A stretch of DNA of 40,520 nucleotides from an uncultured Ignavibacteriales bacterium (GTDB taxonomy: Bacteria; Zixibacteria; MSB-5A5; GN15; JAAZOE01): the NCBI GenBank assembly GCA_964526635.1, contig CAZGLR010000014.1, positions 1 through 40,520 on the forward strand. Reading direction: 5' to 3'. The position numbers were made by a program, and so were the translations under genes. This document shows, piece after piece, positions 537 to 40,296 of the stretch (within the stretch, counting starts at the first letter, position 1; each line of letters starts with the position of its first letter). The notes beneath the pieces are model-generated. The model was not told where the DNA came from and ran no database searches. It saw nothing but the letters and a program-made list of their open reading frames with translations.

Positions 537-908
537 ATGGCACTCGATGATCCCCGAATCTTTGAACTCCATGCCGGGTTCTGTAAAGTCATCGCCAATT
601 CCAAACGGCTCATGATTGTCTCCCTCCTGGCCGATGGCGAAAAGAGCGTGGGGGAATTGGCTGAGGCCCTGGATTCGCCGCTGGCCAATGTCAGCCAGCA
701 TCTGCGCATCCTCAGGGATCACCACATCGTGACTATCAGGAAAATGGCCCAGACGGTGTACTATCGTCTCACCGACCGGCGGCTCCCCGAAGCCTGTCAG
801 CTTATCCGTACGATTTTGTTGGAAAGCCTGACTCAGCAGGTGGAACTGGCCTGCGACGAAAGCTCGGAACGACAGGTACACCGGATATTTACGAAAAAGG
901 GAAGATGA
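537..908 (+). CDS. ArsR/SmtB-family metalloregulatory transcriptional repressor
   Basis: HTH motif SVGELAEALDSPLANVSQHLRILRD typical of the ArsR family; about 120 aa; ATG at 537 preceded by aaaggat (the track's TTG at 519 is less likely); stop overlaps the next gene's ATG (ATGA at 905-908). Confidence 0.8.
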   Translation: MALDDPRIFELHAGFCKVIANSKRLMIVSLLADGEKSVGELAEALDSPLANVSQHLRILRDHHIVTIRKMAQTVYYRLTDRRLPEACQLIRTILLESLTQQVELACDESSERQVHRIFTKKGR

Positions 909-3460
909 GTATGAATAGAGTTATCGGGTTTCGGATGTTCGCACTCGGGTGTCTGCTGACACTGTTTTTTGCGGCCACACTGCAGGGAGCACACCCACCG
1001 ATCATGCTGCTCGATGCCGAGGGGAATGAGATCAATCCCATCACCGGGGATAACGCCGATCAACCGTTCTCGACGGCGATGACCTGCGGCATTTGTCACG
1101 ATTATGAGACCATCACCGGCGGGTATCATTTTCAAATGGGCTGGGATGTGGTCAGTGATACATTCGGCGTTGTCGATGCCAAACCCTGGCAGATATCCAA
1201 TGGTATGATGGGTAAATGGTGTCCATTATACTTCAGGCAACTGGCCAAAAAAGAAAACGAATCGGCGGACGCTATCGACCTGACCGTCTATGACTTTGTA
1301 GGCTTCTCTGACGGCAATGGCTCGCCATATCCCTGCGGCGCCTGCCATCCCGGCGGCGGCGGTCTGGAGTATGACCGCGAGGGTAACCGGTATGATGAAA
1401 TGATGGCCGAAAATCCGGAACTGGCCGAGACTCTCGATGGTGACTACTATCAAAGCAAGTGGCACGAAAGCGGGGTTGTCGAGGCCGATTGCTTTGTTTG
1501 CCATCTCGATGGCTATGCCTTTGAGGAGCGGACTTATCAACTGGAACAGGGCAACTACAAATGGGCCGTAGTCTCCGGTACCGGCTATGGCATCGTGAGC
1601 GGTTCGGTCAAGCGCGGCCGGGAGCCATCGGTTGTCTATAACACGAAGTTTTTCAATGCCGATGGCACTATCAAACTCGACGTCAGTTGGCCCCCGCCTG
1701 ACAAAAACTGCGTGTTCTGCCATGGTCAGTCCGACAGCCGCAAGCGCGGTTTTTCCTGGAATGATATTCATAACTCCGATGTTCACAACAGCCAGGGTAT
1801 CTCCTGTGCCGCCTGTCATCCCTCCGGACTCGATCATCAATTTGCCAAAGGCAATGCCCGGGCGCTCAATGTGGCCGACCATCTCGACGATACCATGATG
1901 GATTGCAAGGAATGCCATGCCGATGGCTACCTCGGTGCAACCGTCCCGGATCATCATTCAGTCAGGCCGTCGCATCTGGAACGTATCGCTTGTGAAGCCT
2001 GTCATATTCCATCGCTGAACCTGTCGGCTGTTCGAGGCGTGGAATCGGCGACCGGAGAACTCGAATTCACATTCCGACCTGATTCGGTCGATGATTTCGG
2101 TGAATACGGTACCTGGTATCCTGATTATGAACGCTGGATAGAAAAGAAGATTTATCCTTTTAATACGCTGGTGATCAACTGGTGGGGAAACTACCAGGAT
2201 GGTGTTATTTATCCCCTGTTCCTGCGGGAGCAGGAAGCCATCTGGCCGTTGTATGCAGACCGGGTGACCGATGATAACGACGATGGCGACCCCGAAGTCA
2301 ATCGTGGCGAGGAGATTCTGGCCGGAATAGAAGCAACCGCCAGAGGGCTGGACGGCAACCAGCGGTTCAGCGAAATTCACCCGGTTTATGTCAAGGCGGG
2401 TACCGCCTGGCATCTGAATGAAGACGGCGTCCTCGATACGCTGCCGTTTGACGAAGTTACCTGTATTATGTATTCGATCAGTCATAATGTGGCCCCGGCG
2501 CGGTTTGCGCTGGGTGTCAACGGCTGCGGTGATTGCCATGACCATGAGGCGCATTTCTTCAAGGGCCGGCGCGTGCTCGATCTGTATGACTCCACCGGTG
2601 CCGCGGTTACGCGCGGCAATGGCTACTTCTTTGGCTGCAACCCGTTTTCATTTACAATCAATACTTTCCACCAGCAGATTCTCAGCCCGATCGTGAGTAT
2701 ACTCATTATCATTGTCATCTTCCTGGTGATATTGCATTATCACAGTTACGGCCCCAAGCATATACCGTTCATCCCCAATTCCGGTGAAGTGAAGCGGTTT
2801 TCACTGTATGAACGGGGGCTGCACCTGTTTCGCCTGATCTCATTTGTCGTGCTGAGTGTAACCGGTTTGATTATGGCTTTCAATCTCGTTTTGTGGCAGC
2901 AATTGCTGTTTAAATCACCACAGCAGATGCTTGAGTTCCATATCGGTTTCGGCATTGTGTTTTTGATTACCACGATACTGGGAATTGTGTCCTGGTACCG
3001 CGATGCCATCTTCAAGCCGCATGACAGGGAATGGATGAAAAAATTCGGCGGATATCTCGGCCACAAAGGTGAATTCACTTCGGGGCGCTTTAACGCCGGG
3101 CAGAAAATGTTTTACTGGTTTACTTCGATTTCGGGAATTCTGATTTCGGTGACAGGAGTTATTCTGACCTTTAAACCCATTACATCGCTGGCGACAGTCT
3201 GCATTACCTCGACTATCCATAACATCCTCGCTTTCATTATGATTGCCGGTGTTCTGGCCCATGCCTATCTCGGGACGGTGGCCAATCCGGGTACCTGGCG
3301 TGTGCTGGTCGACGGCTTCGTGACACGAATCTGGGCGGAACACCATCATCCGCAATGGTATCGGGAAAAGATGGCCCGCGGCGAAGTGGAAACCTGGGAT
3401 GAGGCTGAAGGTGACCAGAACAATGATCCTGATCCGGAAGCCGGCAAGGCTAATTCGTAA
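905..3460 (+). CDS. Octaheme c-type cytochrome fused to a C-terminal diheme cytochrome b (FdnI/HydC-like) membrane domain; CbcL-like quinone-interacting respiratory cytochrome
   Basis: N-terminal signal peptide; eight CxxCH motifs (CGICH, CGACH, CFVCH, CVFCH, CAACH, CKECH, CEACH, CGDCH); then 4-5 TM helices with conserved His (LHLFRL, EFHIGFG, IHNILAFIMIAGVLAHAYLG) as in the formate-dehydrogenase gamma / Ni-Fe hydrogenase cytochrome b family; 4-nt overlap with arsR. Confidence 0.8.
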   Translation: MSMNRVIGFRMFALGCLLTLFFAATLQGAHPPIMLLDAEGNEINPITGDNADQPFSTAMTCGICHDYETITGGYHFQMGWDVVSDTFGVVDAKPWQISNGMMGKWCPLYFRQLAKKENESADAIDLTVYDFVGFSDGNGSPYPCGACHPGGGGLEYDREGNRYDEMMAENPELAETLDGDYYQSKWHESGVVEADCFVCHLDGYAFEERTYQLEQGNYKWAVVSGTGYGIVSGSVKRGREPSVVYNTKFFNADGTIKLDVSWPPPDKNCVFCHGQSDSRKRGFSWNDIHNSDVHNSQGISCAACHPSGLDHQFAKGNARALNVADHLDDTMMDCKECHADGYLGATVPDHHSVRPSHLERIACEACHIPSLNLSAVRGVESATGELEFTFRPDSVDDFGEYGTWYPDYERWIEKKIYPFNTLVINWWGNYQDGVIYPLFLREQEAIWPLYADRVTDDNDDGDPEVNRGEEILAGIEATARGLDGNQRFSEIHPVYVKAGTAWHLNEDGVLDTLPFDEVTCIMYSISHNVAPARFALGVNGCGDCHDHEAHFFKGRRVLDLYDSTGAAVTRGNGYFFGCNPFSFTINTFHQQILSPIVSILIIIVIFLVILHYHSYGPKHIPFIPNSGEVKRFSLYERGLHLFRLISFVVLSVTGLIMAFNLVLWQQLLFKSPQQMLEFHIGFGIVFLITTILGIVSWYRDAIFKPHDREWMKKFGGYLGHKGEFTSGRFNAGQKMFYWFTSISGILISVTGVILTFKPITSLATVCITSTIHNILAFIMIAGVLAHAYLGTVANPGTWRVLVDGFVTRIWAEHHHPQWYREKMARGEVETWDEAEGDQNNDPDPEAGKANS

Positions 3461-5032: not shown

Positions 5033-5402
5033 AAAATGATAAATCTTACGGCCTTATTCTAACGATGTCGAAACGAATTCGCCACATAATTAGTCTGGCT
5101 TGCCGGAAACTGAGCTTTTCGCTGAGAATTTACCAACATTGCCATTTCCTATTTTGTACCCATTCACGGCGCCGCTATACCCATACCCACAGAATTTTCC
5201 GTCGCGCTGGATCAACAGAACACATTGTAGACAAAATATGTGCAATAATAAATAAAAGGAGAAATTTTGTCTAATACACCCGTGAAAACTTCCGATACAA
5301 CCCTCATAAGGGGTATTCAAAAGCACTTCTAATGCACCACAATCCGGGGCTGTTCGGGCGTTACACTCACAAGGCAGTCTGTCATGGGGCTAAGGGGGAA
5401 GT

Positions 5403-7520
5403 ATGTTCTTCAGCAAAATGAAAATCGGCACTAAACTTATCAGTATCTTTTTACTCACTGGTTTGGTACCGCTCGGAATTTTAGGTTTTATCAGTCTTTC
5501 AAAGTCGCAATCGGCACTCGAGCATGCCGAATTCAATCAGCTTGAATCAATCCGGCAAATTAAAAGGCTTCAAATCGAATCATATTTTGCCGAACGACTC
5601 GGAGATGTTTCGGTTTTATCGTCCAACCCGACAGTTGTCGAGGCGATGGAAGCGTTTGATCAGGCTTTTACCTTTGGTGTCGACAGCGACCAGTACAAAC
5701 AGGTCAATTCCGCCTATTCCGATTGGTTAACACAGTATGAAAAAGAATACGGCTACTATGATCTTTTCCTGATCAATACCGACGGCGACATTGTGTATAC
5801 CGTCGAGCGAGAACCCGATTTTGCCACCAATCTTGTTTCGGGGAGATTTTCCAACCAGAATATCGCTGCCTTGTTTCACCGCGCCAAAAACGAGGTTGTC
5901 CTTCAGGATTTTGCCGCCTATGCGCCATCCAATGGCGTCGCGGCCAGTTTTGTCGGCGCACCGGTGAAGAAGGACGGCAAGACAATCGGCGTAGCAGCGC
6001 TTCAACTTTCCATTGCCGCGATCAATAAGATCATGCAGGAAAGAAGTGGTCTGGGTGAATCCGGAGAAACGTATTTGGTTGGTGATGATCTCCTGATGCG
6101 GTCGGACTCACGCTTTTCGACGAAGTCGACCATTCTTGAGCAAACCTGTGATCATGCCTCGATTAAATCCGGTTTGACCGGCAAGTCGGGTATTGAGGTT
6201 GTTCCGGATTATCGCGGTATCAATGTCCTCTCGGCCTATGCACCACTTGAACTACCCGGTCTGAACTGGACGATTATCGCCGAAATTGACGAAGAGGAAG
6301 CGTATCACGCTGTGGCCACGCTCCGCAGTTTTATTTTCCTGCTCATCGGGGTGATTGCTGTTATTGTGGCTGCCGTGGGGTGGTTTTTCTCGCGGAGTAT
6401 TTCTCGCCCGATAGCGCGTGTAGCGATGGTTGCCTCGAGTGTGGCCCAGGGCGATGTGAATCATAAGATAGAAGTAAGATCACAGGATGAGATTGGGCAA
6501 CTGGGACGTTCCTTCGAAGAGTTGATTGACTATATGAAGGAAATGGCCGGCGCCGCCGAGAGTATTGCCAGGAATGATTTGACCGCATCGATTACTCCGC
6601 GATCAGAAGATGATGCGCTTGGTAATGCCTTTAAGATGATGATTGACAATCTCTCCGGTGTCCTGAATCAGTTGAACGACAGTGTCCAGCAACTGGTGAC
6701 GGCCTCCAATGAGATCAGTTCATCGTCGGAACAGATGGCGACCGGGTCCCGGTCACAGACAGATCAGGCTAATCAGGTGACCAGCGCTATTCAGGAAATG
6801 ACAGCGACGATTCTCGAATCCTCCAAAAATGCCAATGAAGCCCGCGAGGTTTCTGAACAGACATCCGCGAAATCCGGCGAGGGGCAGCGCGTCGTGGGAG
6901 ATACCATATCCGGGATGGTCCGTATTGCCGACTCCGCCTCCGAATCCGGACGCATCATTTCCGACCTGGCCGAAGCATCGGATAAAATCGGCGAGATTAT
7001 TGCGGTTATAGATGACATTGCCGACCAGACCAATCTACTGGCTCTCAACGCTGCCATTGAGGCAGCCCGGGCCGGTGAACAGGGTCGAGGCTTTGCTGTC
7101 GTCGCCGATGAAGTCCGCAAACTGGCCGAACGCACCGGCACGGCCACAGGTGAAATCACTGACATGATAAAAGGCATCCAGGAGGATTCCGGACGGGCGG
7201 TGACATCTATGGAAGGTGCCTCCAAGCTGGTCGATGAGGGCAAGGCGCTGGCCGATGAAGCCGGCAACAGCCTGAATGAAATCAACCAGATGTCCACCCG
7301 GGTATCGGATATGATCATCCAGATTGCCACAGCGGCCGATCAGCAATCAGCTGCCGCCGAGCAAATTTCACATAGCATGGAGCAAATCGCGAATGTCACG
7401 CGAGAATCTGCCGCCGGCGCCGAACAGTCCGCCAGCGCCGCGGAAAATCTAAACCAACAGGCCGAAGTGCTCAAGACGATGATCGGGCAATTTAAAGTGC
7501 GAACCAAAGCGACTGTTTGA
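5403..7520 (+). CDS. Methyl-accepting chemotaxis protein with periplasmic double-Cache-like sensor, HAMP and MCP signalling domain
   Basis: Strong RBS (agggggaag) before ATG; N-terminal TM, about 270 aa periplasmic region, second TM, HAMP, then the highly conserved signalling tip [34 protein letters not shown]. Confidence 0.9.
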
Positions 7521-10508: not shown

Positions 10509-11852
10509 ATGCAGGGACGGAAAACCAGACGGCAGGCGCAGGTACCAGCGGCAGTATCGGATAGTGAGATAGTATCCGGATTAGTCGCTGAACAACGATC
10601 GCATTCCGAATCACACCGAATACCGACAATAGCACTGCGGCGGCCTGCGGAATCCATATATCATGAAATCTTTGATAAATCCCCGGTAGGTATAGTCATT
10701 GCCAGCGGTGAATCGATTGCGCTGGCCAATCAGCGGGTGGTTGCCCTCTCAGGATATTCACGTGACGAACTGATGTCGCAACCATATATGGATCTTATCC
10801 ACTCCGACGATCGCAACCATATCCGCGATGTACGGATGCAACTCCTCGAGGGCAATCGCGATCACGCTACTTTTGAGTTCAGAATGCTGCACAAAGATGG
10901 CGGGATCCGATGGTTCGAGGGAAGTGCTGTCCCAATCATGTATGCCGGCCGGATCGCCACTCTGAACTACCTTCGTGATATCTCAGCGAAAAAAGAACTG
11001 CACATTGAACTCAAAGACAGCGAAGCCCGATATCGCTCCTTTGTCGAGAACTTCCAGGGCATAGCTTTTCGGTATACACGTGATTTTGTGCCATTATTCT
11101 ACCACGGCGCAGTTGAGGCGATTACCGGATACTCCGAGCGGGAGCTATTGTCCGGTCATCCCCAATGGTCCCAGATTGTCTATCGACCGGACCGTGAGAT
11201 GTTGACCCGGCAGGCGCAGCAAGTCCAGACCGTTGCCGGGATTTCTCTGGAGCGGGAATACCGGATTCAGACCAGAGATAATGAAATCAAATGGATCCGT
11301 GAGTCGATTCAAAATATACCTGACGACAACGGCAGTCCGATGTACATACAGGGCGCTATATATGATATAACCGAAAAGAAACGTTCCGAGCAGAAACTCC
11401 GGCAGACCTATGCCAATCTTGAGCAGGAGCGGGAAATCCTCAACCAGAAAAACCAAACCCTGAAGGACGTCCTTAATCAGATTCAAGAGGAAAAAAAGCA
11501 GCTTGCACTCGACATCCAATCAAATCTCAATCGCATAACCCTGCCATTGTTTACCATGCTTGAAGAACAATCCGATCCCGATAAAAAGGAATATATCGCC
11601 ATTATCAGAGAAGCGATCGGGAATATCACGTCACCATATTTGTCGCGTCTGGAGCAGTTGTATTCGCAGTTGACTCAGCGCGAAGTCGAGATATGTATGA
11701 TGATCCGGAGCGGGTTTACCTCCAAGCAAATCGCCCAGGCGCTAAATAATTCGGAACAGACCGTCCGCAAACAGCGTAAAATGATTCGCCGCAAACTGGG
11801 TATAGCCAATACCGACGTCAACCTGATGTCGTTCCTTAAATTATTGCGATAG
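10509..11852 (+). CDS. PAS-domain sensor fused to LuxR/FixJ-type HTH transcriptional regulator (one-component regulator)
   Basis: Two PAS-like segments; C-terminal LTQREVEICMMIRSGFTSKQIAQALNNSEQTVRKQRKMIRRKLGI is a LuxR-family HTH; no receiver domain; true start uncertain. Confidence 0.75.
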   Translation: MQGRKTRRQAQVPAAVSDSEIVSGLVAEQRSHSESHRIPTIALRRPAESIYHEIFDKSPVGIVIASGESIALANQRVVALSGYSRDELMSQPYMDLIHSDDRNHIRDVRMQLLEGNRDHATFEFRMLHKDGGIRWFEGSAVPIMYAGRIATLNYLRDISAKKELHIELKDSEARYRSFVENFQGIAFRYTRDFVPLFYHGAVEAITGYSERELLSGHPQWSQIVYRPDREMLTRQAQQVQTVAGISLEREYRIQTRDNEIKWIRESIQNIPDDNGSPMYIQGAIYDITEKKRSEQKLRQTYANLEQEREILNQKNQTLKDVLNQIQEEKKQLALDIQSNLNRITLPLFTMLEEQSDPDKKEYIAIIREAIGNITSPYLSRLEQLYSQLTQREVEICMMIRSGFTSKQIAQALNNSEQTVRKQRKMIRRKLGIANTDVNLMSFLKLLR

Positions 11853-13553: not shown

Positions 13554-15653
13554 ATGTTTAAGTGGAATATACGCGCTCAGATTCTTTCAACCGGTGTCGT
13601 CAGCCTGATTGTGCTGTTCGCGATTGTAGTGTATTTTTATGGCTTCACTGCCAAACGGTTCAGCCAGAATGTCGACGATATTATCTCGATCATAAATGAA
13701 CAATATGCCGCCAATACGTCGCAGGAACTCGAAAACCGCGCGATCACTTTTGATCAATGGACACGCGAAGATGTTTTTGGGCTGGCAATTGAATTCAATA
13801 CGACCAAAGAACTCGGGGAGCAGATGATCGGGTGGCAGGCGGAAGATCCCGAATTCATTCTGCTGGCGGTAGTTGATAAAAACGGCGATGTCATCGAGGC
13901 CGCCAACGGTTCTCAACTTCGGTCCGCCCATGAACTAAAAGGGCGACGTCTGGCCGATGCCGAGACTGTGCTGTCGGCCGGATCAAAGTCAGTGATCTTC
14001 ACGCAAAGCGCGGCCCTCGAGGCGCTGGGTGCTCAATCCAACGCCACCTATATGTTTGTCTATCCGGCCCGGGGGTCCGATGGCAACCGCGTGGGTGCCT
14101 TTATCGCCTATACCGGCTGGAACGGCGTCAACACTCTGACCCAGGCCAGCGCCGATAAACTCAATGCGCTTGAACTCAACGGCGCAGTTTCTTTCGTCGC
14201 CATCCCGGAGAAAAAACTCCTGATTAGTGCCTCCGATGGCGCTAATGGTCACGCTGGTGTCGACGCCTTTATCAATGAACACGCAGCGGCCGGTGCAAAC
14301 AAAGTGGTCGAGACCGAACTGGCCGGCGAAAATATGCTGGTCGGAACTACCCCGGTCAAATTGCCGGACAGCTTTGCCGCCGATTACAATACTGTCCAGC
14401 CGACATTCGTTTCCCTACTGTCTAAAAAAACAGTTATGGCTGCGCTCAACGATACCCTGACCAGAATCATTATACTGGCTGTTCTCAGTAACATCCTCAT
14501 TCTGGCCATCAGCTACTTTATCTCATCACGGATCTCGCGCCGTATTCGCAAAATTGCCGGCGTCGCCGATAAAATGGCCAAGGGTGATATCTCAACCGAA
14601 ATCGAAGTTACTTCCAACGATGAAATCAAAGATCTGGTGGTCTCCTTCAAAGAATTGTCCAGGTATATCGGTGATATGACCACCGCCGCCAACAAAATCG
14701 CCGCCAATGATCTGACTGTGACTGTCTGGCCTCGTTCAGAGCAGGATGAACTGGGTAAATCATTCCAGACAATGATCGAAAATTTGACCGGGATGATCAT
14801 CAGCCTGCAGGAGAACGCCCGTGAACTGAGCAGTTCGGCGACCGAAATAACTGCGACCTCGGAGCAGATGGCTTCGGGCGCCAGAAATCAGTCGCAGCAG
14901 ACGGCGCAGGTCTCATCGGCGATTCAGCAAATGAGCGCGACTATTATGGAATCGTCGCAAAACGCCGGCGTCGCCCGCGAAAGCGCCGAGAGCTCATCGG
15001 AAATTTCCGAAAAGGGCCGACTGACAGTATCATCGACTATCGATGGTCTCATCAAGATCACCGAGGCCGCCAATGATGCCCATCGCATTGTCAATGATCT
15101 CGCGCAGGCATCATTGCGCATCGGCGAAATCACCAGTGTTATCGATGATATCGCCGATCAAACCAATCTGCTGGCCCTCAATGCCGCTATCGAGGCCGCC
15201 CGGGCCGGGGAACAGGGTCGCGGTTTTGCTGTCGTGGCCGATGAAGTCCGCAAGCTGGCCGAACGGACCGGGAAAGCCACCGGCGAAATCAATGATATGA
15301 TCAATTCGATTCAGTCCGATTCCGAACGGGCGGTGCAATCGATGGAGCGGGCGTCATCGCTGGTCGAAGAGGGGAAGGAACATGCCGACGAAGCCGGTGT
15401 CAGCCTTAATGAGATCAATACTATGGCGATGCGCGTCAAGGATATGATCGTCCAGATCGCGGTTTCCACCGATGAACAGTCGGCTGCTGCGGAGGAAATC
15501 TCCAAGAATGTCGAACATATCGAAAATGTCGCTCGCGAGACCGCAGCCGGAGCCGATCAGTCGGCGTCGGCGGCAGAGAAATTAACGCAGCAGGCTGAAA
15601 ATCTGAATAAAATGATCGCGATATTCAAAGTGCAACACAAAACTTCGACCTGA
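13554..15653 (+). CDS. Methyl-accepting chemotaxis protein (paralog of 5403..7520 with a different periplasmic sensor domain)
   Basis: TM-periplasmic-TM-HAMP-MCP architecture; signalling tip identical at protein level to the first MCP over more than 35 aa; RBS ggggagg. Confidence 0.9.
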
Positions 15654-32278: not shown

Positions 32279-32660
32279 TGTATCCTCCCCGATTCTTATT
32301 CTGAATTGATATACTGTGGATATAGCGAAAAATTCAATTTTTTGCGACAATAATATAACAACCGATATCGGGGGGCGGCGATTTTTTCATTTCCCCCGGC
32401 AACATCGCCTTACCGTAATCCTGATCAGAATATTTTCATGGTCGTTTTTGTCAGGCTATGTCGATAGTTACTTGTCACCGGCCCGGGGCTTGGGGCCGAT
32501 AGGAAAATAAAGATCGGCACTAAAGTCAGCTCTTTTGAGTAATGCCCAATCTGTTTTGCAAAATTTCTTCTTTTGTAGATAGATTAATTACCGTCTATAA
32601 AATTTGATTTATATAAAGGAGATAATTGCTAATTGAGGCATTGGTTTATATACTGTCCTT

Positions 32661-33992
32661 GTGGATACTGAGTTCAACAGCACGACCGAGATTATTCTTA
32701 ACAGTATTGCCGATGGCGTCTTCACCGTCGACAATCAATGGCGCATCCGGTCATTCAATCGGGCCGCCGAAATCATCACCGGTATAAGTCGGGAAGAGGC
32801 TGTCGGGAGGCGTTGTTGTGACATCTTCCGGGCATCGATCTGCGAAAGCTCCTGCGCCCTGCGCCAGACCATGACTACCGGGACCAACATCCTCAACAAA
32901 ATCGTCTATATCATCAACAGCGATGGTGACCAGATACCGGTCAGTATCTCGACGGCGCTGCTCAAGGATAACGACGGCCGCGTGATTGGCGGGGTCGAGA
33001 CCTTCCGCAATCTCAGTGATATCGAACGACTGCGCCGTCAGCTCGAAAAACAATACACGTTCCAGGACATAATCAGCAAACATCCCCGTATGCTCGAGCT
33101 GTTTGATCTGCTCCCGGGGATCGCGGAAAGCGACAGCAGTGTGGTGATCCAGGGCGCCAGCGGCACCGGAAAGGAACTTGTCGCCAGGGCTATCCATGAT
33201 CTCTCGCGCCGCCGCAAAGGGCCGTTTATCGCCATTAATTGCGGGGCGCTGCCCGATACCCTGCTTGAGGCCGAGCTTTTTGGCTATAAAAAGGGCGCAT
33301 TCACCGACGCCCGCACCGACAAACCCGGGCGATTTGCCCAGGCCGAGAAGGGGACGTTGTTTCTCGATGAAATCAGCGATATCTCGCCAGCCATGCAATC
33401 GCGCCTTTTGCGCGTCCTCGAGAATAAAACATATGAACCGCTCGGGGCAACCGCCAGCGAAACAGCTAATGTGCGCATTATCGCCGCAACCAATAAACCG
33501 CTGTCCAAACTGATCGCCTCCGGCACCTTCCGGGAAGATCTGTTTTATCGCATTAATGTCATGGAAATCAGCCTGCCTCCGCTCAAAGAGCGGCGCGGGG
33601 ATATTCCCCTGCTGGTGAGCCATTTTGTAAACCATTTCAATACCATGACCGCCAAAAATATAAATGATATTTCCCCGGCCGCCCTGGAAACCCTGATGAA
33701 TCATGATTACCCCGGCAATATCCGGGAATTACAGAATATTATTGAACATGCCTTTGTCGTAAACCGAAAAGGCATTATCGAAACCGCCGACTTGCCCGGC
33801 CATCTTTTGCCGGAAAAAAAACTGCATTCTTCCGAGCCTCAAACGCTTGATGAACTCGAAGCAAAACTCATCAGCAATGTCCTTCGTCGCAATGATTGGA
33901 ATCGGGCCCGGGCCGCGGCCGAACTGGGTATTCATCCCACGACGTTATGGCGTAAGATCAAAAAACTCGGGATCACAACCCCCAATTCATAG
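32661..33992 (+). CDS. Sigma-54-dependent transcriptional activator with N-terminal PAS sensor domain and C-terminal Fis-type HTH
   Basis: AAA+ sigma54-interaction motifs GASGTGKELVARAIH, GAFTDA (GAFTGA variant), ELFGY; C-terminal NRARAAAELGIHPTTLWRKIKKLGI; no receiver domain. Confidence 0.85.
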   Translation: MDTEFNSTTEIILNSIADGVFTVDNQWRIRSFNRAAEIITGISREEAVGRRCCDIFRASICESSCALRQTMTTGTNILNKIVYIINSDGDQIPVSISTALLKDNDGRVIGGVETFRNLSDIERLRRQLEKQYTFQDIISKHPRMLELFDLLPGIAESDSSVVIQGASGTGKELVARAIHDLSRRRKGPFIAINCGALPDTLLEAELFGYKKGAFTDARTDKPGRFAQAEKGTLFLDEISDISPAMQSRLLRVLENKTYEPLGATASETANVRIIAATNKPLSKLIASGTFREDLFYRINVMEISLPPLKERRGDIPLLVSHFVNHFNTMTAKNINDISPAALETLMNHDYPGNIRELQNIIEHAFVVNRKGIIETADLPGHLLPEKKLHSSEPQTLDELEAKLISNVLRRNDWNRARAAAELGIHPTTLWRKIKKLGITTPNS

Positions 33993-34139
33993 CATTGCAT
34001 TACCGCAATTGTAGTTTCTTGAAATATTGCAAATATGCAATATTTTTAGTGCGTTCATGCGAAGTCGATTAATCGATGAACATTTTAATCAATTGTACCA
34101 CAATAATATATTGTTTTCTTGTTTGTGTTTTGCTTATGT

Positions 34140-34155
34140 CGGCAAGCCTTTTGCT
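34140..34155 (+). promoter_or_regulatory. Putative sigma-54 (-24/-12) promoter cGGCAAgccttTTGCT
   Basis: GG and GC correctly spaced versus consensus TGGCAC-N5-TTGC; immediately upstream of the NifX-like operon and downstream of a sigma-54 activator gene; leader to ATG 34172 is unusually short. Confidence 0.4.
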
Positions 34156-34171
34156 TTTATGTTACAACGTT

Positions 34172-34582
34172 ATGGAAAGGGTTGCAATTCCGCTATATAA
34201 TGGACGGGTATCGCCGGTCTTCGATACCGCCACACAGGTTCTGGTCGCTGCCTGTGGCGCTCGCCAGTATTACATCGAAAAGACACTGAGTCTCAAGACA
34301 TCAGATCCGGCCCAACGGTGCCGTTGTCTTGCCGAAAACGGCATCACGGTCATTCTTTGCGGTGGGATATCCCGGCGATTTCTGGCCTATTTACGGAAGT
34401 ACAATATTGTTGTTCATTCTTTTTTAAGCGGGCCGATACCGCAGATCCTGAGAACGTATGTTCGTGATTTTGAACATCTCCAGGATCATCGCCAAATCAG
34501 GCAACGTCCACAGCATCATCGCCGGCGACGAACGGGACATCGGATGCAGCCGCCATCTCAGAAAAAAATGGAGTCGAAATGA
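34172..34582 (+). CDS. NifX/NifB-C-like (dinitrogenase FeMo-cofactor-binding family) domain protein 1
   Basis: MERVAIPLYNGRVSPVFDTATQVLV...ENGITVILCGGIS matches the Nitro_FeMo-Co family pattern; Arg/His-rich tail may indicate an uncertain 3-prime end or a frameshift. Confidence 0.55.
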   Translation: MERVAIPLYNGRVSPVFDTATQVLVAACGARQYYIEKTLSLKTSDPAQRCRCLAENGITVILCGGISRRFLAYLRKYNIVVHSFLSGPIPQILRTYVRDFEHLQDHRQIRQRPQHHRRRRTGHRMQPPSQKKMESK

Positions 34583-34944
34583 AAATTGCTGTTTCAGCTC
34601 AACAGGATTCATTGTCCAGTCCGGTCGATCCGCGGTTTGGCCGGGCCCCGTTTTTCATCATTTATGATACCGACACCGATTCGCACGAAATTATCTCGAA
34701 TGCGGAAAATGTAACGGCCGGGCAGGGTGCCGGCATCCAGGCGGTCCAATTGGTGGCGGGTCATAATGTTGAAATGGTCATTTCCGGCCGCGTCGGTCCC
34801 AAGGCATTCGTGGCGCTTGGCACCGCCGGCATCAGGGTTGCCTCATGGCAGCAGGGCACGGTTTCCGAGGCTATCGATCTGGCCCGGGATAACCGACTTG
34901 AATTTATCAACCAGGCCAATGCCGCGGCTCATTGGCAGCAATAA
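34579..34944 (+). CDS. NifX/NifB-C-like domain protein 2
   Basis: MKIAVSAQQDSLSSPVDPRFGRAPFFIIYDTDT...QLVAGHNVEMVISGRVGPKA family pattern; RBS tggag; 4-nt overlap with the upstream ORF. Confidence 0.7.
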   Translation: MKIAVSAQQDSLSSPVDPRFGRAPFFIIYDTDTDSHEIISNAENVTAGQGAGIQAVQLVAGHNVEMVISGRVGPKAFVALGTAGIRVASWQQGTVSEAIDLARDNRLEFINQANAAAHWQQ

Positions 34945-34969
34945 GCTATATACGGGAGGTGAGTACCAC

Positions 34970-35251
34970 GTGACACCTGACAGCACCAGAGGCGGCCGAC
35001 GATTTCGACTGCGCGGGAATAAGGCGGTGCGCAACAGCGGACTGACTCTTCTGGCTACGTCAATTGTATCGGCCATTACCTACGATCTCAAACAGCCGGA
35101 CAGTATCGTACGCGGCCTGATTGGATCCGGGTATCGCGCGCTTAAATCGCTGGCTGCCCCTCGCCGGGGTCAGGATGTTTCTGATCTGGTGGACGTTACC
35201 GACGTTGCCCCGGCTGAAATTATTGAAGATGAATCGAAGCGAAAGGAGTAA
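34970..35251 (+). CDS. Small hypothetical protein (GTG start, about 93 aa)
   Basis: Fills a 310-nt gap inside the operon; GGGAGGTGA RBS 9 nt before GTG 34970; acidic C-terminus; no family recognised. Confidence 0.3.
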   Translation: MTPDSTRGGRRFRLRGNKAVRNSGLTLLATSIVSAITYDLKQPDSIVRGLIGSGYRALKSLAAPRRGQDVSDLVDVTDVAPAEIIEDESKRKE

Positions 35252-35255
35252 CACC

Positions 35256-35615
35256 ATGCCAGGAGGAGATCGTACCGGACCATTGGGTGCCGGACCATTA
35301 ACCGGTCGAGGCGCCGGCTTTTGCCGTGGCGCCGGGCAACCGGGTTTTTATACTCGCGGTGGTCGCGGCCGGGGTGTCAACCGTCCTTTCGGCGGTCGTG
35401 GTGGTCGCCGGCGCGGCGATTTCTACTATCAACCTGATGCCGTCGGATGGACCCGCGGCAGTGGCGAACCGATTATGGCGGCGGCAGACGCGGCGTATCA
35501 GGACGAAAATACCGGTCTGCAGCAGCAAATTGACAATTTGACCAAAACGGTCGAAGCACTCGGCAGCCGGGTAAAGCAATTGCTGCGGAAGGACACCAAA
35601 GATGATGCAAAGTAA
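35256..35615 (+). CDS. DUF5320-like Gly/Arg-rich protein with C-terminal coiled coil
   Basis: AAAGGAG RBS; N-terminus MPGGDRTGPLGAGPLTGRGAGFCRGAGQPGFYTRGGRGRG resembles the MPRGDGTGPxGxGPxTGRG signature of DUF5320 proteins that accompany MinD-ferredoxin/NifX-like clusters; C-terminal helix QQQIDNLTKTVEALGSRVKQLL. Confidence 0.6.
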   Translation: MPGGDRTGPLGAGPLTGRGAGFCRGAGQPGFYTRGGRGRGVNRPFGGRGGRRRGDFYYQPDAVGWTRGSGEPIMAAADAAYQDENTGLQQQIDNLTKTVEALGSRVKQLLRKDTKDDAK

Positions 35616-35853
35616 AGGACGCGGCGGCGGCCAGGGACAGGGCGGTGGTCGCGGTCAGGGACAGGGCGGTGGTCGCGGCCAGGGCCAGGGACGTGGTCAG
35701 GGTCAGGGACGCGGCGGCGGGCCGAATATGCAGCGCGGACCCGGGGGTGAGTGTATCTGCAATAACTGCGGTGCGATCGTCCCGCATGAACCCGGTGTTC
35801 CCTGCATGGATCAGACCTGCCCGAAATGCGGCGGGACGATGGTAAGGAAGTAA
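35602..35853 (+). CDS. Gly/Arg/Gln-rich low-complexity protein with C-terminal 4-Cys zinc ribbon
   Basis: Overlaps the upstream stop by 14 nt; GRGQGQGGGRGQGQGGGRGQGQGRGQGQGRGGG then CICNNCGAIVPHEPGVPCMDQTCPKCGG. Confidence 0.55.
   Translation: MMQSKGRGGGQGQGGGRGQGQGGGRGQGQGRGQGQGRGGGPNMQRGPGGECICNNCGAIVPHEPGVPCMDQTCPKCGGTMVRK
35632..35720 (+). repeat. Imperfect tandem DNA repeat (about 24-nt unit ggacagggcggtggtcgcggtcag, about 3.5 copies) encoding (GRGQGQGG)n
   Basis: Read directly from the sequence. Confidence 0.8.
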
Positions 35854-35867
35854 CGCGGAACGACTGC

Positions 35868-36716
35868 ATGAGAATAGCCTTTGCCAGTGGAAAGGGTGGT
35901 ACCGGTAAGACAACGCTGGCCACCAATTTGACAGCATGGCTCGCTGATCAGGGCGAGACAGTTTGCTATGCCGACTGCGATGTGGAAGAACCTAACGGGC
36001 ATATTTTTCTCAAACCGGAGATTGAGGACACCATTGACGTGACTGTCCCGATTCCGGTAATAGACGCAGAGGCCTGTGATGCCTGCGGCGAATGTGTGAC
36101 GCATTGTCAGTTCAATGCCATAGCTCTTTTGGGCAAAACTGTCGCAGTTTTCCCAACACTCTGCCACAGTTGCGGGGTGTGCAGTGCCATCTGTCCTCAG
36201 CAGGCGATTACTGAATCATCCCGGTCGCTTGGCACGATTACTATCGGTCGCGGCCGTGGCGCTGGTGTGTATACCGGGCGTCTGACGGTTGGCGAAGCGC
36301 TGGCCCCGCCGGTCAGCAGAGCGCTGAAAAGCCTGTTACCCGATGACGGCACCATAATTATCGATGCTCCGCCGGGCACGTCCTGTCCCGTGATTGAAGC
36401 GGTAACCGGATGTGACTATCTGGTATTGGTAACCGAACCGACACCGTGCGGCCTCCATGATCTCTGTCTGGCCCTTGAGATGGCGGGAAAGCTCCATCTG
36501 CCCTGTGGTGTCGTGATAAATAATGACGATGGCGACCCCGATACGGAAGTCGCGATCGCCTCCAGGGGCGCAGAAATTCTACAGACTATCGCATATCAGC
36601 CGCATCTGGCCCGAAAGTATTCCGAGGGACACATGTTGATCGATGCTGATCCGGGCTATGCCTGGAAGATGAAACATCTCTATGGCAAAATAACACGGGC
36701 GGTGGCGCATGGCTGA
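35868..36716 (+). CDS. MinD/ParA-superfamily P-loop ATPase with inserted 2x[4Fe-4S] ferredoxin domain (COG1149-type)
   Basis: Deviant Walker A SGKGGTGKTT; CDACGECVTHCQFNAI and CHSCGVCSAICPQQAI CxxCxxCxxxCP clusters. Confidence 0.85.
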   Translation: MRIAFASGKGGTGKTTLATNLTAWLADQGETVCYADCDVEEPNGHIFLKPEIEDTIDVTVPIPVIDAEACDACGECVTHCQFNAIALLGKTVAVFPTLCHSCGVCSAICPQQAITESSRSLGTITIGRGRGAGVYTGRLTVGEALAPPVSRALKSLLPDDGTIIIDAPPGTSCPVIEAVTGCDYLVLVTEPTPCGLHDLCLALEMAGKLHLPCGVVINNDDGDPDTEVAIASRGAEILQTIAYQPHLARKYSEGHMLIDADPGYAWKMKHLYGKITRAVAHG

Positions 36717-37635
36717 GATGGTCTTTATCAGTGGCAAAGGGGGGACCGGGAAGACCACTGTGTGTGCCAGTCTGGGGCATCTTCCTGAATCCTGTGTGCT
36801 GACAGACTGCGATGTGGATGCAGCCAATTTGCATCTGCTGGTCAACTACAACACCAAAGAAACACATGATTTTTCCACCAGTGCGGTGGCGTCGATCGAT
36901 CAGACTGCCTGCGATTCCTGCGGGCTGTGTTTTGATTTGTGTCGTTTTTCGGCCATCAGCCGTACCTATAAATCCGATGTACCGGGAAAATATGAATACC
37001 GCGTGGAGCCGCTTGCCTGTGAGGGCTGCGGTATGTGCCGTTACATGTGCCCGCAAAAGGCGGTTGAACTGAAACCGGTACGCAGCGGCCAGTGGTTTAT
37101 CTCCGAAACCGAGCGCGGGCCGTTTTATCATGGCCGCCTTGATATCGCTCAGTCCAATTCCGGCCGCCTGGTTTCTCTGCTGCGCAAAAAGGCACAGGAA
37201 GCCGCGCGCGTCTCGAACATCCCGCTGCTGCTCACCGATGGTCCTCCGGGGATTGGCTGCCCCGTAATTGCATCAATAACCGGCGCCGACCTGGTCGTGG
37301 CTGTTTCGGAACCATCGCGCTCGGCCTTTCATGATCTGCAACGGATTGTTGAGTTGACGACATTTTTCTCGCTCCCGGCGGTCGTGTGTATTAACAAATA
37401 CGATATCAATCCAGAAATCTCCCGTCACATCGAGGAATTCGCGCAGGAACATCATCTGCCGGTTGTAGCCAGGTTGCGCGTTGACCGGGCAGTGATCGAC
37501 GCCCAGCGAACCGGGCGACCGTATCTCGATGTTGCGATCGACTATAACCGTCGCGAATTGATTAAAATGTGGAATACAGTAATTGATCGATTGCCTGACC
37601 TCAATGGCACCAGGCAACGGCGTTTTGCCGTCTGA
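36709..37635 (+). CDS. Second MinD/ParA-type ATPase with inserted 2x[4Fe-4S] ferredoxin domain
   Basis: SGKGGTGKTT; CDSCGLCFDLCRFSAI and CEGCGMCRYMCPQKAV; 8-nt overlap with the upstream paralog. Confidence 0.85.
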   Translation: MAEMVFISGKGGTGKTTVCASLGHLPESCVLTDCDVDAANLHLLVNYNTKETHDFSTSAVASIDQTACDSCGLCFDLCRFSAISRTYKSDVPGKYEYRVEPLACEGCGMCRYMCPQKAVELKPVRSGQWFISETERGPFYHGRLDIAQSNSGRLVSLLRKKAQEAARVSNIPLLLTDGPPGIGCPVIASITGADLVVAVSEPSRSAFHDLQRIVELTTFFSLPAVVCINKYDINPEISRHIEEFAQEHHLPVVARLRVDRAVIDAQRTGRPYLDVAIDYNRRELIKMWNTVIDRLPDLNGTRQRRFAV

Positions 37636-37664
37636 TGAAAATGAATGAAATGGAGAAGACAACA

Positions 37665-38048
37665 ATGAAAATAGCCATCCCTACCGAAAACGGCCGGCTG
37701 TGCGCCCATTTCGGACACAGCCCGCAGTTTACCCTGGTCGATGTCAACGCTGATACCGGCCTGATAGAAAACAGGTCAACGATGACTCCACCGCCGCATG
37801 ACCGTGGTGTCCTCCCGGCCTGGCTGCGCGAGCTCGGGTGCACGCACATCATTGCCGGTGGTATGGGCGGTCGGGCGCTGACGCTTTTTGCCCAGCAGGG
37901 CATCGAAGTAGTGTGTGGGGTCGGTGAGTCGGATATTGACGACATTATCGCAGCTTTTTTTGCCGGCACGCTGGCGACTGATAACAATCCCTGCAGTGAT
38001 CCCTCGTTTCATGCGGGGGGGCATACTGATTGCGAGCATCGTCATTAG
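37665..38048 (+). CDS. NifX/NifB-C-like domain protein 3 with Cys/His-rich C-terminal extension
   Basis: MKIAIPTENGRLCAHFGHSPQFTLVDV...HIIAGGMGGRALTLFAQQGIEVV; tail NPCSDPSFHAGGHTDCEHRH; RBS ggagaag. Confidence 0.7.
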   Translation: MKIAIPTENGRLCAHFGHSPQFTLVDVNADTGLIENRSTMTPPPHDRGVLPAWLRELGCTHIIAGGMGGRALTLFAQQGIEVVCGVGESDIDDIIAAFFAGTLATDNNPCSDPSFHAGGHTDCEHRH

Positions 38049-38133
38049 ATGCCGCCGGTTGATGAACAAATAGTGACACTTACAACCTGTGCCGGTCTTT
38101 ATGGTCGGCGTAAGGAATAGATGGAAAGCAACT

Positions 38134-39588
38134 ATGCGAACAGATCCGATCTCTGAAGAACAACGTAAGACGGCTTTTGCGGCCACCAAAAAGCCGGATG
38201 TGATGGAGCGGCAAAAGCTGGCGGTGCGATATCATGTCGAGGATTACGATATTGCCGACCGGCCACGGAAATTTCTGGAGGCCTTTGCCGCAATTTTGCG
38301 GCATACCAATTATCGTTTTGCTCTGGATCATTTCGCGCGGGTCTCGGCAAAGTGCGCCCGATGTTCGGTCCAGTGCCCGGTGTATCAGGCGACCGATGAT
38401 GTCACCGACATCCCCTGCCATCGATCTGAATTGCTGCTGAAGGTCTATAAACGGCACTTTACCCTGGGCGGTATGTTCCAGGGCCGCCTGACCGGCAGTG
38501 GCCACCTGACCGACAGCGATATCGAAGAGATGGCCGACTCGTTCTGGAATTGCACCGCCTGCCGGCGCTGCACGCTGGAATGCCCGGTCGGCATCGATCA
38601 TGCCCTGATTACCCATCTTGGCCGTTTCATCCTCAGCGAAATTGGTATTGCCCCCCGGGCGCTGGTCGTCAGTACCCGTGAACAGCTCGAAGGTAAAACC
38701 GGTAACACTTCGGCTATACCGCTGCCGGCCCTGGTCGATACCCTCGAATTTCTTGAAGAGGATATGAAAGAGGAAAAGGGCGTCGATATTAAATTCCCGC
38801 TCGATGTCGATGGCAGCGAATACCTCTTTATGCCGGCGGTCTCCGATTTTTTGATGGAGGCCGAGACCCTGATGGGTATCGCAGCTGTCTTTGCCGCCAC
38901 CGGCGGTTCCTGGACAATCAGCACGGAATACTTCGATGCAATCAACTACGGCCTCTTTTACAATGATCGCATTCTTGAACGGGTCATTCGCAAGCTGTAT
39001 GCCGAATCCGAGCGGCTGCATACCAGGGCTATACTGATCGGTGAATGCGGCCATGCTTCGCGTACGGCCAAATATTTCGTGCCGGTGCATTGCGGTGGCG
39101 ATAAAGCCAGGCCCGTGTTGAATATCATGGAATACACATATCGCATGCTGAAAGAAGGCAAACTCAAACTCGATCCCAACGTGATCACCGAACGGGTGAC
39201 ATATCACGATCCTTGCAACATCGCCCGTCAGGGCTGGGTCGTTGACCAGCCGCGTGAGATTATCCGGGCTTTCTGCAAAGACTTTGTTGAGATGACCCCG
39301 CGCCGTACCGAAAACATCTGTTGCGGTGGCGGTGGCGGATCGGTATCGATCGATGAAATCCGTCCCTATCGCACGACGATCGGCGGCAAGGCCAAGGCCG
39401 ACCAAATTCGTAACACCGGCGCCAGGTACGTTATTGCGCCATGCGCCAACTGCAAAAAGCAATTGCGGGAACTGGTCGAAGATCAGCGAATCGACTGCGA
39501 AGTCATCGGGCTGCATGATCTGATCTACAAAGCAATTATTTTCGATACTGTCCCGCAGCCATCACCCGAAACCGTGGAGAAAGGATAA
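38134..39588 (+). CDS. HdrD/DsrK/GlpC-like Fe-S oxidoreductase with CCG domain
   Basis: Cys clusters CARCSVQCP and CTACRRCTLECP; CCG-domain signature HDPCNIARQG...ICCGGGGGS...APCANCKKQL; start at ATG 38134 preferred. Confidence 0.75.
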   Translation: MRTDPISEEQRKTAFAATKKPDVMERQKLAVRYHVEDYDIADRPRKFLEAFAAILRHTNYRFALDHFARVSAKCARCSVQCPVYQATDDVTDIPCHRSELLLKVYKRHFTLGGMFQGRLTGSGHLTDSDIEEMADSFWNCTACRRCTLECPVGIDHALITHLGRFILSEIGIAPRALVVSTREQLEGKTGNTSAIPLPALVDTLEFLEEDMKEEKGVDIKFPLDVDGSEYLFMPAVSDFLMEAETLMGIAAVFAATGGSWTISTEYFDAINYGLFYNDRILERVIRKLYAESERLHTRAILIGECGHASRTAKYFVPVHCGGDKARPVLNIMEYTYRMLKEGKLKLDPNVITERVTYHDPCNIARQGWVVDQPREIIRAFCKDFVEMTPRRTENICCGGGGGSVSIDEIRPYRTTIGGKAKADQIRNTGARYVIAPCANCKKQLRELVEDQRIDCEVIGLHDLIYKAIIFDTVPQPSPETVEKG

Positions 39589-39591
39589 CCA

Positions 39592-40296
39592 GTGCAGGAG
39601 ATACTCGATTTTTGCCGCGGCCCGCTGTTCCGATTTTCCTTTTTACTTATGGTCTTCGGACTGCTCCGCATCCTGGTCCTTGATATCTGGCAGGCGTTGA
39701 TCGCATGGCGCCGGGCCGGGGACAAGCGACTTGCGTGGAAGTCGGCGACAGTCAATACTTTACACTGGCTGTTTCCGATTAAAAAGACGTTTACCCGAAA
39801 ACCGGTCTATAGCCTGGTTTCTATATTGTTTCACGTCGGCTTGATCACTGTCCCGATTTTTCTGGCCGCTCATATTACACTCTGGCACGAGAGTACCGGT
39901 ATCAGATGGTGGGCCATGCCGCACAGCCTGGCTGACTGGCTGACGATCTCCACGATTGTCTTTGCCCTGACCTTGTTTGCCTGGCGGGTGCTCAGCCGTG
40001 ATGCCCGCTTTCTCAGCCGCAGCCAGGACTATCTTTGGCCGATTTTGCTGAGTATCCCGTTTATTACCGGCTATGCCTGCGTCAATACCGCTTTGAGTGC
40101 GCGAGCGTATGAATTCAGTATGCTGCTGCATGTGCTGTCGGCGAACCTGATTTTCGTCATGATACCGTTTTCGAAAATCGCCCATTGTGTCATCCAGCCG
40201 TTGTCGCAATTCATGCTGGCCCTGGCCTGGAAATTCCCGGCCCGCATCGATGATAAAATTGCCACGACTCTCAAGAAGAAAGGAGCGCCGGTATGA
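39592..40296 (+). CDS. NarI/DsrM/HdrE-like integral membrane cytochrome b
   Basis: 5 TM helices with conserved His (LFHVGLITVPIFLAAHITLWH, LLHVLSANLIFVMIPFSKIAH), as in nitrate-reductase gamma-like subunits that pair with HdrD/DsrK. Confidence 0.65.
   Translation: MQEILDFCRGPLFRFSFLLMVFGLLRILVLDIWQALIAWRRAGDKRLAWKSATVNTLHWLFPIKKTFTRKPVYSLVSILFHVGLITVPIFLAAHITLWHESTGIRWWAMPHSLADWLTISTIVFALTLFAWRVLSRDARFLSRSQDYLWPILLSIPFITGYACVNTALSARAYEFSMLLHVLSANLIFVMIPFSKIAHCVIQPLSQFMLALAWKFPARIDDKIATTLKKKGAPV

Follow-up and report, generated by a model that had tools for sequence, protein, structure and literature searches.

The window analysed here, i.e. the whole 40,520-nucleotide stretch of contig CAZGLR010000014.1, encodes a sigma-54-dependent activator of the bacterial enhancer-binding protein (bEBP) type, whose gene (32661 to 33992) is followed on the same strand by genes for an orange protein (ORP) and associated iron-sulphur proteins. 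The activator is very likely an ortholog of OrpR, a regulator known from Desulfovibrio vulgaris Hildenborough (DvH), and would use a redox-sensitive [4Fe-4S] cluster within its PAS domain to drive the adjoining orp operon. The activator gene and the control elements around it comprise the following features (UAS, upstream activating sequence):

32626 to 32654, plus strand: predicted sigma-70-like promoter of the orpR-like gene, with -35 TTGCTA (32626-31), a 17-nt spacer and -10 TATACT (32649-54), a 9/12 match
32661 to 33992, plus strand: orpR-like gene, GTG start, 443 amino acids, PAS / sigma-54 AAA+ / Fis-HTH enhancer-binding protein
32814 to 32855, plus strand: codons C52-C53-D54 to C61 to C65 of the PAS domain, predicted [4Fe-4S] ligands by conservation and published numbering
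33294 to 33311, plus strand: GAFTDA loop (residues 212-217), the sigma-54 contact motif, from reading of the sequence and alignment
33994 to 34009, unstranded: UAS 1, predicted OrpR site, palindrome ATTGCATTACCGCAAT, 16 bp, ATTGCA-N4-TGCAAT
34026 to 34041, unstranded: UAS 2, predicted OrpR site, palindrome ATTGCAAATATGCAAT, 16 bp, its centre about 106 bp ahead of the promoter 16-mer
34042 to 34139, unstranded: AT-rich spacer between UAS and promoter, 72% A+T versus 48.5% in the whole window
34140 to 34155, plus strand: predicted sigma-54 promoter cGGCAAgccttTTGCT, with GG at 34141-42 and GC at 34153-54 and a predicted transcription start at about 34165-34167

A Pfam scan of the 443-residue protein returns PAS_9 (residues 18-120), Sigma54_activat (PF00158; residues 137-303, E 6e-66), AAA_lid_14 and HTH_8 (residues 395-436) and no Response_reg domain. 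This bears out the sequence-only reading, an earlier note on this DNA, in that it had described a PAS-type sigma-54 activator devoid of a receiver. The protein thus combines the single N-terminal, receiver-free PAS arrangement of OrpR with the features of a bEBP, namely a Sigma54_activat AAA+ core, a GAFTGA-type loop, present as GAFTDA, and a C-terminal Fis-type HTH. For DVU2106, the OrpR of DvH, this loop is likewise listed as GAFTDA (PMC4641369). An AlphaFold model of the activator based on 89 homologs (mean pLDDT 80.5) can be superposed, with a TM score of 0.9, on the AAA+ cores of ZraR, FleQ and NtrC1. NCBIfam holds no OrpR-specific model, and all bEBP equivalog matches of the protein stay under their cut-offs. 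Its closest relatives are proteins encoded in metagenome-assembled genomes (MAGs) of Zixibacteria to which it is 65-69% identical.

The OrpR/orp system as such is already known, an identity which the sequence-only reading had missed. OrpR and the orp1 and orp2 promoters of DvH are reportedly the subject of work by Fievet in 2011. Both are also described in Fievet 2014 (PMC3897727) and Fievet 2021 (PMC8359166). In DvH, the PAS-AAA+-HTH activator DVU2106 acts together with sigma-54 and integration host factor (IHF) to activate two divergent orp operons, whose adjacent promoters turned out by ChIP-seq to be its sole targets (PMC8359166). Its PAS domain harbours a [4Fe-4S]2+ cluster requiring C52, C61 and C65, the acidic residue at position 54 being the candidate fourth ligand (PMC8359166). 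A rise in redox potential of about 140 mV inactivates the protein, which nevertheless retains DNA binding, and deletion of the PAS domain or mutation of the cysteines renders it constitutive (PMC8359166). The same paper considers OrpR restricted to Deltaproteobacteria (PMC8359166).

The residues on which redox control depends in DvH recur in the window protein, as C52, D54, C61 and C65 bear numbers identical to those of the cluster residues of DvH OrpR (PMC8359166) when compared by published numbering. Among 100 close homologs none deviates at C52, C61 or C65, and C53 is conserved to 96%. For a wider comparison we used 80 loci encoding activator relatives, taken from one-genome-per-species contigs, plus seven loci with the closest homologs (65-69% identical), mostly labelled Zixibacteria. 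In 49 full-length cross-phylum relatives the cysteine triad is retained in 44-45 and an aspartate or glutamate at position 54 in 41, whereas C53 occurs in just three. Relatives which do not possess the triad mostly also have no adjoining orp genes, the exception being locus L064 with a weak Orp7-like match downstream. By analogy with the DvH experiments, from which these properties are carried over, the PAS domain would bind the Fe-S cluster, respond to redox potential and exert negative control.

An activator of the orp operon could instead sense a signal other than Fe-S redox state through its PAS domain, e.g. a small-molecule ligand, heme, flavin or a cysteine-bound metal such as zinc. Many cofactors are known for PAS domains, the PAS region of the activator gives just weak generic matches to solved PAS structures such as FixL and LOV, none of them an informative homolog, and the confidence of the AlphaFold model drops over residues 51-70. 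In addition, the fourth cysteine of this clade, C53, is not conserved elsewhere, so that the coordination may differ from that in DvH. The exact C52/C61/C65 triad together with the acidic residue 54, needed for redox control of DvH OrpR (PMC8359166), is nonetheless conserved across phyla, and we consider a different signal improbable. A LOV- or heme-type PAS domain, which the GRRCCDIF motif and its position had brought to mind, was set aside solely by reason of the OrpR cysteine triad.

The genes downstream of the activator, all on the plus strand and overlapping or closely spaced, are those expected of an orp cluster:

34172 to 34582, plus strand: first operon gene, encoding an Orp7-like NifX/Di-Nase domain protein (MERVAIPLYNGRVSPVFD...), by domain match and profile
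34579 to 34944, plus strand: ORP (Orp8)-like gene, Pfam Nitro_FeMo-Co 84 bits
35256 to 35615, plus strand: DUF5320 gene, in the place of Orp5 in the DvH gene order and likened to it by position only
35602 to 35853, plus strand: gene of a small Gly/Arg-rich protein with two CxxC pairs, of no described family
35826 to 36716 and 36709 to 37635, plus strand: two MinD/ParA-type ATPases with 2x[4Fe-4S] ferredoxin inserts, Orp4/Orp3-like, by CbiA/ParA and Fer4 domains
37635 to 38048, plus strand: stand-alone Di-Nase domain gene with a CxHFGH motif, equal to the C-terminal domain of MrpORP (Orp9)

The best match of the ORP-like gene product in the Protein Data Bank (PDB) is 2wfb, the ORP of D. gigas (E 1.8e-18). 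An ORP-type Di-Nase protein and the paired MinD-like ATPases with 2x[4Fe-4S] inserts, which together define an orp cluster, are thus both encoded; Orp3 and Orp4 as well as the CxHFGH motif of MrpORP/Orp9 are described in PMC6345978. The product of 37635-38048 covers positions 258-365 of the NCBIfam model MrpORP with 116 bits versus a cut-off of 450, and no gene for an Mrp domain was found among the operon genes scanned (34172-40296), so the MrpORP fusion itself is not encoded there. Hence, apart from the Mrp/NBP35 domain, the genes which DvH distributes over two orp operons are found together in a single unidirectional operon of the window. Activator genes with orp-type genes behind them on the same strand occur in at least 21 genome loci from many phyla, among them Geobacteraceae, Desulfobulbus, Smithella, Spirochaetes, Victivallales, Planctomycetes and a gammaproteobacterial MAG, and in 7/7 Zixibacteria-type relatives. 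The gene order of the window recurs in the Zixibacteria-type relatives.

The sequence-only reading had pointed to a GG-N10-GC match about 18 nt before the first NifX-like open reading frame; it is found at 34140-34155, with 17 nt between the C of the -12 element (34154) and the ATG (34172). A loose scan of the whole 40.5-kb window (TGGCAC-N5-TTGCW, two mismatches) does not rise above chance, giving 12 matches versus 19.5 expected. In its place we used a weighted scan and comparative analysis. With GG and GC made obligatory, the weighted consensus yields cGGCAAgccttTTGCT (21/23) as the top match on both strands of the window, the next best reaching 20. In the window and seven close relatives the -24/-12 element is located +128 to +162 nt past the activator stop codon and its core, GG[CT]A-N7-TGC, is invariant (8/8), the spacer bases being variable. 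Furthermore, a sigma-54 site scoring at least 19 is positioned directly upstream of the Orp7-like gene, recognised by a profile of the first operon gene, in 34 loci from many phyla. GG and GC, 10 nt apart in a TGGCAC-N5-TTGCW context, therefore occupy a conserved orthologous position.

Candidate upstream enhancer inverted repeats, a search for which the sequence-only reading had suggested, are present as two ATTGCA-N4-TGCAAT palindromes (33994-34009 and 34026-34041), 32 bp apart and directly past the orpR stop codon. The pattern TTGC-N6-GCAA has two matches in the entire window, both of them in the intergenic region between orpR and the operon. Within 32 related loci, 26 occurrences of the strict motif fall into the stretches from -200 to -30 relative to the promoter (170 nt each, 5.4 kb) versus five in the remaining 311 kb, corresponding to an approximately 300-fold enrichment upstream of promoters. 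The spacing of paired copies in this set is 30-32 bp. In loci such as L016 and L032, whose promoter is 1-3 kb away from orpR, the motif accompanies the promoter, and some lineages exhibit variants such as TAGCA-N4-TGCTA or TCGCA-N4-TGCGA. The DvH orp1 region also contains two palindromes 32 bp apart upstream of the sigma-54 box, yet their sequence is GGGCGYRTTTTGCGCCC (17 bp with a 3-nt centre). As the 32-bp spacing is common to the window and DvH orp1 while the palindromes differ, we read the two regions as having the same architecture with a different recognition sequence. The activator gene is accordingly situated beside orp genes preceded by a sigma-54 promoter with paired upstream palindromes, as in DvH, with another motif sequence. 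The spacers between palindromes and promoter are AT-rich (57-76% A+T), and that of the window contains a lone match to the IHF consensus WATCARNNNNTTR, with one mismatch, on the minus strand (34104-34116).

Beyond the paired sites, a near-copy of the UAS, TTGCAATTCCGCTA (34182-34195), occurs about 15-30 nt past the predicted start, in the codons V-A-I-P-L which belong to the first operon gene. At this codon position, 11/32 Orp7-like versus 1/21 paralogous NifX-like genes carry the half-site TTGCAAT, many of the 11 being closely related; the near-copy could be a third OrpR contact or a codon coincidence. In locus L086 (about 2440-2500) a palindrome, TTGCGTTTTTGCAA, is placed directly upstream of the -10 box of orpR, which suggests autoregulation of orpR there, as reported in DvH. 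In the window, the region upstream of orpR has no such palindrome.

Domain architecture, ligand conservation, synteny and the conservation of promoter and palindromes are the established part of the assignment to OrpR. They also support the central proposal of the sequence-only reading, according to which a PAS activator with no receiver is a direct redox sensor and switches on the adjoining redox/cofactor operon from the GG-N10-GC element: OrpR does so by means of its PAS [4Fe-4S] cluster (PMC8359166), and ligands, neighbourhood, paired palindromes and promoter are conserved. A number of observations weigh against this assignment. The orthology is based on published residue numbers, motifs and synteny rather than on a direct alignment with DVU2106. 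The palindrome of the window (16 bp, 4-nt centre) is unlike GGGCGYRTTTTGCGCCC of DvH, and no conserved IHF consensus is found in the spacers of the relatives. The promoter deviates from the consensus in having C instead of T before GG and A instead of C at the sixth position. As there is no terminator between orpR and the operon, read-through could add to expression. Finally, a search with the rpoN-box peptide did not detect rpoN in the window or in any of the fetched loci, which contain no IHF genes either, so that sigma-54 in the source genome is an assumption, and we found no literature on sigma-54 in Zixibacteria. On a Zixibacteria-type contig, locus L085 encodes a second sigma-54 activator (5245-6335), of the receiver type and convergently oriented, right after a shortened orp cluster; this is indirect support for the use of sigma-54 by the lineage.

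Some of these points would also agree with the GG-N10-GC element being a chance match, the operon being transcribed by read-through from the orpR promoter or from an intergenic sigma-70-type promoter and the activator having its targets elsewhere. Matches to the loose consensus are no commoner than chance in the window, no terminator follows orpR, and sigma-70-like matches exist at 34019-34046 (9/12) and 34173-34201 (10/12). Such matches in the AT-rich stretch, however, barely exceed those in shuffled sequences (7 versus 3.6 +/- 2.2), whereas cGGCAAgccttTTGCT is the top weighted match of the window and the -24/-12 core is kept in place in 8/8 relatives while neighbouring bases drift, as well as being present in 34 loci across phyla. 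In DvH, moreover, the adjoining orp promoters are the only targets of OrpR according to ChIP-seq (PMC8359166). Since chance and read-through leave the conservation of both the -24/-12 core and the palindromes unexplained, we regard this explanation as improbable.

The distance of only 17 nt between the -12 C and ATG 34172 had led the sequence-only reading to caution that the true start codon or the promoter may be elsewhere. In the 34 loci with a strong sigma-54 promoter (score of at least 19) the -12 C and the start codon are separated as follows:

12 nt: 7 loci of 34
13 nt: 5 loci of 34
16 nt: 4 loci of 34
17 nt (the window): 1 locus of 34
21 nt: 1 locus of 34
25-73 nt: 16 loci of 34

In the short-gap class (12-17 nt; 17/34 loci) there is no room for a Shine-Dalgarno (SD) sequence and the start codon is ATG in 16/17. 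The long-gap class (at least 25 nt), by comparison, displays a clear SD in about 14/16 loci, as judged by eye, and a TTG or GTG start in three. Upstream of ATG 34172 no SD is present either. This ATG is the only plausible start, as the conserved M-x-[RK]-[IV]-A-[IV]-P strand begins with it and no in-frame start follows; a further in-frame ATG, 34076, precedes the promoter and is therefore excluded from a transcript begun there. With no other plausible start and the short gap recurring in half of the loci, the earlier caution is not supported. The least probable of the alternatives, in which the promoter is real but translation starts elsewhere behind a normal ribosome-binding site, could invoke the SD-like GGAAAGGG (34174-34181), 5 nt before an in-frame ATT at 34187, and the differing starts picked by gene callers in relatives, some of which miss the gene altogether; against it, no in-frame ATG, GTG or TTG occurs until far beyond the conserved N-terminal strand, M-E-R-V-A-I-P aligns with the M-K-I-A-I-P starts of the family, ATG 34076 is outside the predicted transcript, and in relatives the distance from the -12 C to the ATG is constant at 12-13 or 16-17 nt despite differing N-terminal extensions (12 nt in L013; in-frame and 13 nt in L009).

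In DvH orp1, the end of the promoter box is at -11 relative to the mapped start, and about 35 nt separate the GC from the ATG, which is preceded by a GAGGT SD. If this geometry applies, the 5' untranslated region (UTR) would amount to about 0-3 nt in the 12-13 nt class and to about 4-7 nt in the window, and the mRNA would therefore be leaderless or near-leaderless. Transcription start and leaderless translation are both inferred from this spacing. We lean, with moderate confidence, towards a conserved class of sigma-54 promoters built for leaderless or near-leaderless mRNAs, in which the -12 GC would be placed at a constant distance (12-13 or 16-17 nt) ahead of the first orp start codon in Zixibacteria, Spirochaetes and some Desulfobacterota, with no SD and nearly always AUG, other lineages having leadered versions with SD and orpR of Zixibacteria-type loci appearing leaderless too, transcribed from a sigma-70-type promoter. 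No paper that we found connects leaderless transcripts with sigma-54 promoters; one containing both terms makes no link. Gene callers missed or mis-started the first operon gene in several relatives.

The orpR gene itself also looks leaderless. The -10 box TATACT of its predicted promoter ends 6 nt before the GTG start at 32661 and there is no SD; in 8/8 cases (the window and seven Zixibacteria-type relatives) a TATAYT box is located 6-9 nt before the orpR start codon, again with no SD. In one of these relatives, P0010 (L083), the annotated start seems to be over-extended by about 21 codons.

Taken together with the DvH data, these features can be assembled into a proposed mechanism. OrpR dimers would occupy the two ATTGCA-N4-TGCAAT palindromes directly past the stop codon of their own gene, and the AT-rich DNA between palindromes and promoter would form a loop, possibly with the help of IHF or HU. 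At low redox potential and with the cluster intact, the AAA+ ring would remodel sigma-54 RNA polymerase on cGGCAAgccttTTGCT and thereby turn on one operon comprising the genes of the Orp7-like protein, ORP, DUF5320, the small Cys protein, the two MinD-like Fe-S ATPases and the Di-Nase protein. Transcription would begin about 11-12 nt after the -12 GC, i.e. 4-7 nt before the ATG, and the mRNA, having no Shine-Dalgarno sequence, would be translated as a leaderless or near-leaderless message. Upon a rise in potential the cluster would be oxidised and the PAS domain would block the ATPase, DNA binding being continued.

Compared with DvH, the locus agrees in the receiver-less PAS-AAA+-HTH bEBP with C52/C61/C65, acidic residue 54 and GAFTDA which adjoins orp genes, in the sigma-54 promoter, about 90-140 bp upstream of which are two palindromes spaced 32 bp apart, with AT-rich or candidate IHF-binding DNA in between, and in the sigma-70-type promoter of orpR, which is a predicted one in the window. 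It differs in having one unidirectional operon instead of two divergent ones, ATTGCA-N4-TGCAAT instead of GGGCGYRTTTTGCGCCC, the additional Cys53, no OrpR site over the promoter of orpR, and a 17-nt gap with no SD in place of the gap of about 35 nt with a GAGGT SD in orp1. With the ORP complex (Orp3, Orp4, Orp5, Orp8 and Orp9/MrpORP; PMC6345978) it shares the ORP-like Di-Nase protein, the two MinD-like 2x[4Fe-4S] ATPases and the CxHFGH Di-Nase domain. Unlike in that complex (PMC6345978), the latter is devoid of a fused Mrp/NBP35 P-loop domain, a small Gly/Cys-rich gene is added, and DsrK-like and TmcC/HmcE-like genes then follow on the same strand. Further afield, NreB and FNR likewise employ a Cys-ligated [4Fe-4S] cluster as sensing cofactor, that of NreB also in a PAS domain, and in NorR and DmpR, too, the AAA+ domain is kept inactive by the sensor domain as long as the right signal state is absent (PMC8359166). 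In contrast to the activator of the window, NreB is a histidine kinase, FNR a CRP-family factor and NorR senses NO via a GAF domain with non-heme iron; none of NreB, FNR, NorR and DmpR controls orp genes.

Turning to the remaining genes, the product of 35602-35853 is 83 residues long with a Gly/Arg/Gln-rich N-terminal half and zinc-ribbon-like CxxC pairs; a gene of 59-84 codons occupies the same operon position in L083, L084, L086 and L087. A gap of 311 nt (34945-35255) separates the ORP-like and DUF5320 genes, versus 23-84 nt in relatives. The open reading frame running through it (34907-35251 tested) matches no Pfam family, and an Rfam search of 32300-35400 detected no riboswitch (e.g. Moco riboswitch) or sRNA. 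After a further gap of 40 nt, the orp genes are followed on the same strand (38089-40296) by genes for a DsrK-like CCG/Fe-S protein (NCBIfam DsrK 290 bits, under the cut-off of 400) and a TmcC/HmcE-like membrane subunit. These may be co-transcribed with the orp genes and link them to a membrane redox module. Elsewhere the window encodes a fusion of a multiheme cytochrome with a cytochrome b561-like part (905-3460), two methyl-accepting chemotaxis proteins (5403-7520 and 13554-15653), a PAS-LuxR regulator (10509-11852), an M4 peptidase, a dockerin-domain protein and, directly upstream of orpR, a flotillin/NfeD pair. This gene content fits an anaerobic, environmentally responsive organism.

The locus is thus the known OrpR/orp system in what is probably a new host lineage at the phylum level, Zixibacteria, the system having been called restricted to Deltaproteobacteria (PMC8359166). 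Judged from sequence comparison, it would appear to add a cross-phylum binding motif, a single-operon arrangement, a clade-specific fourth cysteine and a conserved short distance between promoter and ATG. OrpR is the first described bEBP which senses redox by way of a PAS Fe-S cluster. Its reported confinement to Deltaproteobacteria is to be viewed in the light of the present locus and more than 80 related ones, among which the OrpR-orp module, ligands included, is found in Zixibacteria, Spirochaetes, Planctomycetes, Lentisphaerae/Victivallales and further MAG lineages. The motif TTGCA-N4-TGCAA can serve to predict OrpR regulons of uncultured anaerobes. For want of a ribosome-binding site, gene callers often overlook the first orp gene or place its start wrongly. 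With half of these sigma-54 promoters placed directly on the start codon, the family would offer matched leadered and putatively leaderless versions of one regulon, a set suited to the study of activator-dependent transcription coupled to leaderless translation.

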